From: a virus
Lineage: Duplodnaviria; Heunggongvirae; Uroviricota; Caudoviricetes
Strand: one strand, 5' to 3'
Virus record (IMG/VR): IMGVR_UViG_2897375277_000004
Length of the DNA: 30,827 bases
Below the pieces are notes generated by a model. It was not told where the DNA came from, did not search any database, and saw only the letters and a list, made by a program, of their open reading frames with translations. Every line of letters starts with the position of its first letter. Position 1 is the stretch's first letter. The translations under genes were made by a program, and so were the position numbers. This document shows, one piece after another, positions 28,342 to 30,827 of the stretch.

Positions 28342-28404
28342 GACTTTCTCCAGGCAAAAAGAAGCCCCGCACGATTAAGTGCGTTAAAAACTCTGGTTAA
28401 TTAT

Positions 28405-28905
28405 TTAATGCAGATATTGCTCTGGTTTTACCGACGTCAGAATTGTCGGTGCGTACTCAAACAGGCTGAATAATTCACGTAATGCACGGAATAAAGCATC
28501 ACGCCAGTAACATGATTCTTCATTAATTCGCCAGTATGGCTGGTTGAATTCTTTTTCAGTCAATCCGGCATGCATAAATAAAGTACGACGCTGACTGACT
28601 GTTAAAAAACTAATATATGCATACTCACTTGCGCCAACCTGACGGCGTTTTGAGAATGCCCCACGCAATTCATCAATTGCACAAACCAGCCGTTCACGTT
28701 CGACGTCGTTCATTTCTTCAAAACGCATCGTTGCGTGACGCTGTTTTAACTGCGCATGAAAGCAAACCGTTAACCGTTCGCGCTCCATCATCTGATTATA
28801 ATAATCACATGTATCCTGCCAGCGAGGGACGGCAAGATGCTTACCAATTATCCGGCGCATAGCTGCTGGCTGTTTTTCAACGAGATTAAGCGTCATCACT
28901 GTCAT
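28405..28905 (-). CDS. B: Replication protein B (helicase-loader-like)
   Basis: About 166-aa product (MTVMTLNLVEKQP...); P2 gpB position after cox; start codon choice uncertain. Confidence 0.8.
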   Translation of the reverse strand: MTVMTLNLVEKQPAAMRRIIGKHLAVPRWQDTCDYYNQMMERERLTVCFHAQLKQRHATMRFEEMNDVERERLVCAIDELRGAFSKRRQVGASEYAYISFLTVSQRRTLFMHAGLTEKEFNQPYWRINEESCYWRDALFRALRELFSLFEYAPTILTSVKPEQYLH

Positions 28906-29099
28906 TTCCATACCCTCCGGCTTTTCAGAAAGGTCAGAGCCTTCTTTAACGGACTCTGTTTTTTGGTGCGGATAATGATTCCCTTGCGCCCCTTCCCGTG
29001 GGTGATGGTGAAGTCAATCGCCCTGGGGCTTTCGTTACGCAGTAACTGAGCAATACAACGCGGCTCATTCATAATCACAACCCCATCCACAAAAGCCAT
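28902..29099 (-). CDS. Possible small ORF between cox and B
   Basis: 65-aa ORF overlapping the cox 3' end; start uncertain; may be spurious. Confidence 0.35.
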   Translation of the reverse strand: MAFVDGVVIMNEPRCIAQLLRNESPRAIDFTITHGKGRKGIIIRTKKQSPLKKALTFLKSRRVWK

Positions 29100-29362
29100 G
29101 CATCACGCTGTTCAACCGGTCGGTTATAAAACGCCTCACGTACAGCGCGATTAAACTCAGGAATGAAAACCCATTTTTCACCGGCACGAGCCTTCGGTTT
29201 GCAAGGATCACGCAATTCAATAATTGGTAATTTATTTGCCTTCACCATTTCACTGACGGCTGTCTTTGGCTTCCCTAATAAATCAGCAAATTTATCCACA
29301 TGAACCGCATCAAGCGGATACTGAATCACATAATTTTCAGCGTCCATATATGGTACCCTCAT
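29075..29362 (-). CDS. cox: Cox excisionase/repressor of Pc
   Basis: 95-aa ORF with the P2 Cox-like pattern KLPIIEL...RAGEKWVFIPEFN...RPVEQRDAWLLWMGL; first gene of the early operon, divergent from C. Confidence 0.8.
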   Translation of the reverse strand: MRVPYMDAENYVIQYPLDAVHVDKFADLLGKPKTAVSEMVKANKLPIIELRDPCKPKARAGEKWVFIPEFNRAVREAFYNRPVEQRDAWLLWMGL

Positions 29363-29428
29363 AGGATCCAGCCCTTTCTAAACCACTCAAAACCGTTTAG
29401 ACGCTGGTTTATTCTCAAATCAATGGAA

Positions 29429-29472
29429 CCTATATAGGTTCCAGTTTTGAGGGAATTTAGTCCCTATATAGG
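29429..29472. promoter_or_regulatory. Two copies of the 10-bp palindrome CCTATATAGG, 34 bp apart centre to centre; candidate operator sites
   Basis: Read directly at 29429..29438 and 29463..29472 in the C/cox intergenic region; they flank the candidate -10 of the early promoter. Confidence 0.5.
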
Positions 29473-29483
29473 CACCATGTCAA
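29454..29483 (-). promoter_or_regulatory. Candidate early promoter Pe (minus strand: -35 TTGACA, 18-bp spacer, -10 TAAATT)
   Basis: Consensus TTGACA at 29478..29483 abutting the C start codon; -10 at 29454..29459; directs transcription toward cox. Confidence 0.45.
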
Positions 29484-29777
29484 ATGAAATTAAGCGAAAA
29501 GATTAAGGCCTTGCGTGAGGCTGAAGGGCTAAGCCAATCAAAATTCTGTGAAATCATAGAGTTACCGCTAAGCACACTTAAAAAATATGAAGGAGGAAAC
29601 TTTGAACCCGGTGGCACAGCTTTGCTAAAAATCACTATGCATCCCACATTCCAAAAATATGCTCTATGGCTTATGACAGATAAAACCGCGCCGGACGCAG
29701 GACAAATCGCACCGGCTCTCGCGCACATTGGGCCAGAGTCAACAGAGTCCAACCACTCCGCGAAAAGGATTGGCTAA
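29484..29777 (+). CDS. C: Immunity repressor C
   Basis: 97-aa ORF with the P2 C-like segment ...QIAPALAH...; upstream of int on the same strand. Confidence 0.88.
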   Translation: MKLSEKIKALREAEGLSQSKFCEIIELPLSTLKKYEGGNFEPGGTALLKITMHPTFQKYALWLMTDKTAPDAGQIAPALAHIGPESTESNHSAKRIG

Positions 29778-29797
29778 CTCTATATAAAGATTATATT

Positions 29798-29824
29798 TTC
29801 ACCATTTGCTACCAAGATGGTGAA
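29798..29824. other. 8-bp inverted repeat TTCACCAT / ATGGTGAA (11-nt loop) between C and int
   Basis: Read directly; position suggests a regulatory hairpin or protein-binding site ahead of int. Confidence 0.35.
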
Positions 29825-29846
29825 TACAGCGCCGGAGGGCTTTCTT

Positions 29847-30827
29847 ATGGCAATTAAGAAGCTCGATGATGGTCGCTATGAAGTGGACATTAGACCTCGC
29901 GGTCGCGACGGAAAACGCATCCGCAGGAAATTCGAAAGAAAAGCTGAAGCACTAGCATTTGAGCGATACACAATCGCCAATGCCAGTCAGAAAGAATGGG
30001 GAGGCCAGCGAGCAGACCGCCGAACTTTGAGTGAGTTGCTGGACATCTGGTGGAAATATCACGGGCAAAACCACGAGCATGGAACAAAAGAGTTTAATCA
30101 TCTACTCAAAACCATCAGCGGCATAGGTGATATACCAGTGAGCCGGATGAGCAAAAGGGCTTTGATGGATTATCGTTCCATACGACTACGTGATGGTATC
30201 AGTGCCGCAACGATAAACCGTGACATGTACCGATTATCCGGCATGTTCACAAAATTAATTCAATTGGATGAATTTTCCGGGCAACACCCAATTCACGGAC
30301 TGCCGCCACTGGCGGAGGCCAACCCTGAAATGACGTTCCTGGAAAAAGCAGAAATCGAAAAACTGTTAAATGTTTTGGCTGGTGATGACTTACTTGTCGC
30401 GCTTTTATGTCTGAGCACTGGAGGAAGATGGACGGAAGTTGCCACGCTAAAACCAGCACAGATTACAAATTGCAGGGTTACCTTCCTGAAAACCAAAAAC
30501 GGTAAAAAGCGAACCGTGCCGATTTCTGAGGAACTGGAGAAAAAAGTTAAAGAGGAGGCAAGCGCCAAATTATTCAAAGTTGATTATGAGAAATTTTGCG
30601 GGATTTTACGCAGAGTGAAACCTGATATACCACCCAATCAGGCAACCCACATCCTGCGGCATACATTCGCAAGCCATTTCATGATGAACGGGGGCAATAT
30701 AATCGCACTGCAACAGATTCTGGGACATGCGAGCATTCAGCAGACGATGGCCTATGCGCACCTTGCGCCTGACTACCTGCAAAATGCCGTCGCTCTGAAT
30801 CCACTAAAAGGCGGAGTGACGTTATAA
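29847..30827 (+). CDS. int: Tyrosine integrase (P2 Int family)
   Basis: 326-aa product from Met at 29847 (MAIKKLDDGRYEVDIRP...); C-terminal catalytic motifs HILRHTFASHF and MAYAHL; window ends at its stop codon. Confidence 0.92.
   Translation: MAIKKLDDGRYEVDIRPRGRDGKRIRRKFERKAEALAFERYTIANASQKEWGGQRADRRTLSELLDIWWKYHGQNHEHGTKEFNHLLKTISGIGDIPVSRMSKRALMDYRSIRLRDGISAATINRDMYRLSGMFTKLIQLDEFSGQHPIHGLPPLAEANPEMTFLEKAEIEKLLNVLAGDDLLVALLCLSTGGRWTEVATLKPAQITNCRVTFLKTKNGKKRTVPISEELEKKVKEEASAKLFKVDYEKFCGILRRVKPDIPPNQATHILRHTFASHFMMNGGNIIALQQILGHASIQQTMAYAHLAPDYLQNAVALNPLKGGVTL

Follow-up and report, generated by a model that had tools for sequence, protein, structure and literature searches.

Organization of the cox-C region

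The region of interest is located between two divergent genes of the window, by which we mean the whole stretch of 30,827 bp that was analysed. On the plus strand, gene C (29484..29777) encodes a 97-residue putative immunity repressor with a helix-turn-helix domain (Pfam HTH_3), which is 100% identical to the gpC of phage L-413C and clearly related to the P2 C protein of known structure (2XCJ/2L49, E 1.9e-21). The int gene follows C. On the minus strand, the first gene of the early operon is cox (29075..29347), identified by its Pfam domain (Phage_Cox, E 1e-23) and by alignment with the WPhi cox, and annotated accordingly in L-413C and RefSeq. A 97-residue C reading frame with int next to it and a divergent cox heading the early operon are characteristic of P2-type switches, and the gene order is that of L-413C, WPhi and P2.

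The cox start codon is most likely the ATG at 29347 rather than the one at 29362, since RefSeq gives a 273-nt cox in identical prophages and the resulting N-terminus MDAENY aligns with the MEVNDY of WPhi. The public annotation is inconsistent in this respect: the GenBank record of L-413C uses the upstream ATG equivalent to 29362, which gives a protein of 95 residues, whereas a 90-residue Cox from 29347, which aligns with the WPhi Cox, is found in the RefSeq, FSL SP-004, HQ103 and R18C records. The earlier note had described the space between cox and C as 121 bp long; the sequence features reported for it hold, but its length becomes 136 bp when cox begins at 29347.

A consensus scan of the minus strand between 29000 and 29900 finds a sole promoter-like site, Pe, which consists of the -35 element TTGACA (29483..29478), an 18-bp spacer and the -10 element TAAATT (29459..29454) and agrees with the sigma-70 consensus in 10 of 12 positions. 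The perfect -35 hexamer directly abuts the C start codon at 29484 and the -10 hexamer lies 18 bp from it, both as had been claimed before. The -10 element aligns with the TATATT of WPhi, and of the 59 distinct sequences upstream of C that were compared, 57, that of WPhi among them, have TGTCAA adjoining the C ATG, which is lacking in P2 and one other locus. Judging from the distance and from the annotated WPhi promoter, transcription from Pe probably starts at about 29447. A substitution in the -10 element, A29454G, is present in 80 of 420 prophage-bearing E. coli genomes (loci L041, L042, L124 and L126), where it converts TAAATT to TAAATC with loss of the conserved final T; this lineage, with genomes of ~4.8 Mb that come from human isolates, may represent a Pe-down, locked-in prophage.

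On the plus strand, the consensus scan of the spacer did not find a promoter. Alignment with WPhi, whose record AJ245959 includes an annotated promoter, nevertheless points to a candidate extended -10 element of Pc, TGgTACCCT, at 29351..29359; the pattern TGnTAAYCT occupies this position in four sister classes, and the hexamer is TACCCT in both the window and WPhi. Transcription from such a promoter would start near 29364 and converge with that from Pe, and the two transcripts would overlap by ~84 nt. The remark that Pe and Pc stand face to face fits this arrangement, with Pc placed by homology. Just downstream of the probable Pc start, a block consisting of GGATCCAGCCCTTTC followed by AAACC-type repeats (29364-29392) is maintained in WPhi and the sister classes and may be the leader of Pc or a region to which Cox binds.

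A duplicated palindrome around the Pe -10 element

The 10-mer CCTATATAGG occurs at 29429-29438 and 29463-29472, 34 bp apart from start to start, as two exact self-complementary copies, in line with the earlier description. These are the only matches in the 30,827-bp window even if one mismatch is tolerated, against a chance expectation of 0.28. The proximal copy, the core of a putative operator O1, is located inside the Pe spacer between the -35 and -10 elements, in a position homologous to the WPhi O1. The distal copy, the putative core of O2, begins 16 bp downstream of the -10 element and would cover approximately +10 to +19 of the Pe transcript; the claim that one copy lies in the promoter spacer and the other past the -10 is thereby borne out. 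Two half-sites around a Pe element, here flanking the -10 at 29454-59, are again an arrangement typical of P2-type switches.

Both copies are embedded in more extensive symmetry. The distal one forms the centre of TGGAACCTATATAGGTTCCA (29424-29443), a perfect palindrome of 20 bp and the longest in the window, which contains the probable full dimer site, an 18-mer of the form GGAACC..GGTTCC at 29425-29442. Around it, the outer dyad arms CTCAAA (29414-19) and TTTGAG (29446-51) extend the symmetry to 29414..29451; these arms, delineated by the covariation in alignment A3, are the counterpart of the AAAAGGT..ACCTTTT arms of other classes. The proximal copy is part of a 16-bp near-palindrome (29460-29475), and the likely full O1 site is the 18-mer AGTCCCTATATAGGCACC at 29459-29476.

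When the 121-bp spacer was shuffled 20,000 times, at least one 10-bp palindrome appeared in 2,512 of the shuffled sequences (~13%), at least two in 165 and a 10-bp direct repeat in 97. The additional inverted pair CTCAAAAC/GTTTTGAG of the earlier note does exist, although its true positions are 29386-93 and 29444-51 and not those given previously; such pairs were found in 1,373 of the 20,000 shuffles, and the pair is therefore not significant by itself. A third palindrome of the CC(W6)GG type, CCATATATGG (29344-29353), is located 85 bp from O2 and shares bases with the cox start codon and with the TG in the extended -10 element of the candidate Pc. The switch holds three of the four CCW6GG matches of the window. 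As a third operator it was rejected, since all six of its central bases differ from those of the operator and it is missing from the sister classes.

Immunity class

The 1-kb region around the switch is 99.2-99.8% identical to that of Peduovirus P24B2, Yersinia phage L-413C, R18C, FSL SP-004 and others, and the P2-like phage of E. coli O157:H43 T22 falls in the same range. Of 5,426 complete E. coli genomes, 420 carry the spacer itself as a single chromosomal copy, and its identity to these prophages and to 18 phage records is 97.5-100%. Within one immunity class, phages are expected to share the spacer and to have C proteins of 95% identity or more (PMC3448106). Along with the identical C, the window has a spacer matching that of L-413C, which places it in the L-413C immunity class. 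The C protein is only 55.7% identical to that of WPhi, the representative of class III, and the operator 10-mer is different. The match of 10-bp sites 34 bp apart would have led one to expect WPhi itself, but this identification was discarded in view of the C divergence and the absence of the WPhi primer sequence. From P2 the C protein is more distant still, with 43% identity. Taken together, the homologies of C, Cox and int and the C identities to WPhi and P2 indicate a C/Cox switch of the P2 type whose immunity class is neither that of P2 nor those of P2 Hy dis and WPhi; by 2007 these were the only three classes with located operators (PMC1904268).

Comparison with characterized operators

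The closest counterpart of the duplicated palindrome is the operator of WPhi, whose half-sites are 10 bp long, lie 34 bp apart from centre to centre and flank the Pe -10 element (PMC1904268). This operator has been proven by CAT reporter assays, EMSA and SPR, and the WPhi C protein is a dimer in solution and bends the DNA (PMC1904268, PMC1904263). According to the WPhi record AJ245959 and the oligonucleotides in PMC1904263, the WPhi half-site GTCACCAATA is present in two copies that lie at -56 and -22 relative to the C start codon, and the window 10-mer is found at -55 and -21; the shift by one base arises because the Pe spacer is 18 bp long in the window and 17 bp in WPhi. In both phages, then, exact 10-bp repeats 34 bp apart are found with one copy in the Pe spacer and the other just past the start, TTGACA adjoins the C ATG and the genes are arranged in the same order. 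With the candidate Pc of the window, the convergent promoters would also be comparable, ~83-84 nt apart, with an overlap of 83 nt in WPhi and ~84 nt in the window. WPhi also has its attP core in common with L-413C (PMC3448106). The two switches differ, apart from the C divergence, in the half-site itself, which is GTCACCAATA in WPhi and CCTATATAGG in the window, in its symmetry, the window sites being palindromic and those of WPhi not, and in the distance between cox and Pc, which is 19 nt shorter in the window. The WPhi C/Cox switch is also said to have been treated by Liu and Haggard-Ljungquist in 1999.

The likeness to P2 is more general and consists of a homologous repressor, two sites around the Pe -10 element and, with the candidate Pc, promoters that face each other. 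The P2 sites O1 and O2 are 8-bp non-palindromic direct repeats 22 bp, or two helical turns, apart, and P2 C is unable to bind a lone half-site (PMC2995052). The P2 C protein is a symmetric dimer surprisingly similar to repressors that bind palindromes, and yet it reads non-palindromic direct repeats (PMC2995052). Such non-palindromic half-sites, emphasized for P2 C (PMC2995052), are not what is seen in the window, where the 10-mer is self-complementary. P2 Hy dis shares the repressor family and the two-site logic, but belongs to another immunity class, and its 8-bp repeats, which are not palindromic either, are 26 bp apart, flank the -35 element of Pe and lie on opposite faces of the helix.

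For dyad-symmetric sites, a parallel can be drawn to repressors of other systems. The 434 repressor binds such sites with one symmetric helix-turn-helix dimer each. The same holds for C.Esp1396I and P22 c2, of which the former places two adjacent dimers on sites 15 bp apart and the latter can be superimposed on P2 C with an RMSD of 1.9 Å (PMC2995052). Unlike WPhi and P2, these three proteins have no family-level homology to the switch of the window, and the analogy is one of mechanism. As for earlier reports, all seven coliphage classes reportedly have direct repeats according to Karlsson 2006, and the string CCTATATAGG had no match in the phage papers searched, although it may already be noted in Karlsson 2006 or Garcia 2008, which lie outside that set.

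Conservation among sister classes

A scan of IMG/VR combined with C alignment yielded 80 loci with C proteins 55-100% identical to that of the window. In a footprint of the spacers from five sister classes, with C proteins 67-85% identical, the sole invariant islands are ATATAGG at the distal site, A.ATAGG at the proximal site, AAT.TA at the Pe -10 element and GTCAAATG, which comprises the Pe -35 element and the C start, and the sequence between the islands has diverged. Such conserved islands with diverged flanks are the pattern that would be expected of functional protein-binding sites. Two classes (L066 and L080) carry an exact CCTATATAGG at the distal position and CCTAAATAGG at the proximal one, 32 bp apart.

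When 39 distinct C classes are anchored on TGTCAA, both sites fit an 18-bp frame of the form [A/G]GT-N12-ACC. The end bases of the O2 frame, GGT...ACC, are each present in 32-39 of the 39 classes and those of the O1 frame, AGT...ACC, in 25-33, and the 12-bp interior is class-specific. Comparison of O1 with O2 shows them to be direct repeats in some classes (15 of 18 positions in L064 and L084, 16 in L103) and inverted copies in others (15 of 18 in L071, L107 and L121, 14 in L072). In the window, symmetry over the 18 bp extends to 9 of 9 pairs in O2 and 7 of 9 in O1, which is the top joint symmetry among the 39 classes. Depending on the class, the interior of the frame may be symmetric (the window), directly repeated (WPhi, L064, L084 and L103) or inverted (L071, L072, L107 and L121).

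Position 2 of the 18-mer is a G in 38 of the 39 O2 sites, and the L-413C substitution G29426T falls at exactly this position, which suggests that the functional site is the 18-mer and not the 10-mer. Each 18-bp site may then accommodate one C dimer, in a symmetric manner in the class of the window. Among the sister classes, the operator type does not follow in any simple way from the residues that have been proposed to contact bases in P2 C. There is no simple residue-to-base code by which helix 3 would specify the operator: L103 has the same helix-3 sequence as the window, STLKKYEGG, but a different operator.

Natural mutants and lysogens

Forty copies of the region 28400-30700 were compared, namely L-413C, 33 IMG/VR contigs including R18C, FSL SP-004, HQ103 and four E. 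coli prophages. Only L-413C and R18C, both lytic and with an intact C, have altered bases in either of the two sites. L-413C has six private changes in the 2.3 kb, among them G29426T in the arm of the distal palindrome, A29455G in the Pe -10 element and G29472T at the last base of O1 (clustering P 2.3e-4); the change at 29426 is outside the 10-mer and fits only with an 18-mer site. R18C has 11 private changes, of which G29438A affects the last base of O2 and C29464A the second base of O1 (clustering P 3.9e-3), and both are confirmed in the GenBank record MN016939. The site changes do not stand alone, since nine further private changes are present in the R18C region, and in L-413C the Pe -10 element and one cox codon are also altered. 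Beyond the operator, the private changes of L-413C (locus L001) comprise an adjacent pair at 28696-28697, inside an open reading frame (28405-28911) that by position is the gene B homolog, and 29196 in cox.

L-413C is known to be lytic, a mutant with clear plaques derived from a temperate phage (PMC2893161, PMC3448106), and the authors who described R18C called it a virulent P2-like phage and gave no reason for its lytic phenotype (PMC6823313). In WPhi, repression persists when one half-site is mutated and is abolished when both are (PMC1904268, PMC1904263), and one hit per site, as in L-413C and R18C, is what these experiments require for an escape from repression. Operator mutation with the C gene intact would be a candidate explanation for the lytic behaviour of the two phages. 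A third lytic isolate, the Yersinia phage HQ103 (locus L038), which was isolated on Y. pestis, has a 7-bp deletion at 29640-29646 that truncates C to a coding sequence of 186 nt, and is a repressor-null relative of the window's class.

In the E. coli lysogens the sites are maintained. Identity over 29421-29480 is complete in 316 of the 420 genomes, and the 30-mers around O2 and O1 are exact in 415 and 407, respectively. Both 10-mers are intact in at least 415 of the 420, with no altered copy in the sample and up to five genomes with a mismatch near the sites outside the inspected set. The sampled variants, at 29402, 29422, 29444, 29453, 29454, 29476 and 29477, are all located beyond the 10-mers. 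The invariance of 20 bp by itself is weak evidence, because the prophage copies are ~99% identical overall, and the informative part is the contrast between the intact lysogens and the mutated lytic isolates. The variant C29476T is present in ten of the 420 genomes, including that of the O157:H7 strain F8492 (locus L123); it alters the proposed 18-mer of O1 at its final base, so that ACC becomes ACT, and a T is found there in five of the 39 other classes.

Discussion

The two palindromes are very probably the sites at which C shuts off Pe, and together they would constitute a WPhi-like operator of another immunity class. The proposal of the earlier note that they are C operators of a non-P2 immunity gains support from the WPhi layout, the distinct C class, the footprint among sister classes and the natural mutants, so that it now has a basis in both homology and natural variation. 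The positional homology to the WPhi half-sites argues for their assignment as O1 and O2 of the window's class, and since the layout copies that of a proven operator, the system appears to be an ordinary switch with a new and unusually symmetric operator. The sequence features, the homology of protein and layout, the conservation and the pattern of natural mutants are all directly observed.

In the mechanism that we envisage, Pe would read leftward into cox, and one dimer of the 97-residue helix-turn-helix repressor would occupy each palindromic site, O1 in the Pe spacer and O2 three helical turns from it, at ~+10 to +19. The C dimers on both sites would cooperate, occlude the RNA polymerase and bend the DNA, and Pe would thereby be turned off. 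This in turn would relieve the interference on the convergent weak Pc, the source of C and Int. We infer the binding of C, the stoichiometry of the dimers, their cooperativity and both transcription starts.

A more far-reaching proposal, which we regard as tentative and somewhat more likely to fail than to hold, is that the sites of the family are built on the 18-bp dyad frame with one symmetric dimer on each, that the reading of direct repeats is not the rule for the P2 C family, and that L-413C and R18C are virulent operator mutants. If the frame reading is true, the class of the window would be a natural system for studying how the C dimer reads DNA. The known sites of this family are asymmetric direct repeats, which has made its symmetric dimer puzzling, and the window offers a naturally symmetric operator, with GGAACCTATATAGGTTCC as a DNA for testing symmetric binding by the C dimer. 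The putative operator is also assigned to a P2-like immunity class that is common and widespread but uncharacterised, with a single chromosomal prophage in 420 of the 5,426 complete E. coli genomes and with L-413C, R18C, P24B2 and FSL SP-004 among its phages, and a testable genetic cause is suggested for the lytic nature of the plague-diagnostic phage L-413C and of R18C, in both of which the repressor gene is intact. What the analysis adds are the palindromic nature of the sites, the 18-bp dyad frame and the operator-mutant explanation for the two phages; the accepted picture of the P2 switch remains unchanged.

Alternative roles of the palindromes

Other explanations of the repeat were weighed against the operator. 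That it might have arisen by chance or be neutral, given an AT-rich spacer, is hardly credible: while a single 10-bp palindrome is common enough in the shuffles, a pair of identical copies is seldom seen (97 to 165 of 20,000), the two matches in 30.8 kb exceed the expected 0.28, and the cores are kept in sister classes where the flanks diverge. Nor does it seem at all likely, although slightly less remote, that the palindromes bind Cox or a host factor instead of C. Palindromes are generic protein sites and Cox does act in the cox-C spacer of P2 and WPhi (PMC3448106), but in P2 C and Cox use separate operators, each located at the controlled promoter or close to it, the one controlled by Cox being Pc (PMC3448106), and the conserved block that possibly serves Pc or Cox is found elsewhere, at 29364-29392. 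The sites, moreover, coincide exactly with the positions of the WPhi C half-sites, and clear-plaque or virulent phages would not be expected from mutations in a Cox site.

More weight, if still well on the improbable side, is given to the possibility that the distal palindrome mainly acts as a nucleic-acid hairpin, either as a stem-loop at the 5′ end of the early mRNA with a role in stability or pausing, or as a structure in the Pc leader. A hairpin with an 8-bp stem and a 4-nt loop is predicted in both transcript senses, and a scan flags it as terminator-like at 29443..29424, approximately +5 to +24 of the early operon, with 4 of 8 stem pairs being G-C and an interrupted tail, TTGATTTGAG. Comparable extended arms are lacking around the proximal site. 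The inverted repeat is maintained across the 39 C classes with compensatory changes: in alignment A3, which spans 29414-29451 of the window and, in the loci L043-L122, the positions from about -70 to about -35 relative to the C start codon, 82% of the cells of the dyad are paired, compared with 68.7% in shuffles (reached in 0 of 500), and 52 cells have double changes compared with 16.5, with far lower values in slid controls. The distal arms are mostly AAAAGGT..ACCTTTT, in some classes CAACTGGTTC..GAACCAGTTG, and in the window TGGAACC..GGTTCCA plus CTCAAA..TTTGAG. A hairpin would nevertheless not account for the presence of an identical second copy between the promoter elements, for the distance of 34 bp between the copies or for the mutations that R18C and L-413C carry in the proximal one, and its outer arms would fall upstream of the probable Pe start. 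G.T and A.C mismatches are equally frequent in the stem (23 and 22), and nothing in this points to selection acting on a single RNA strand, so that a dyad acting at the DNA level is equally possible. The hairpin is best taken as a function that may exist in addition to that of the operator, and not as its replacement.
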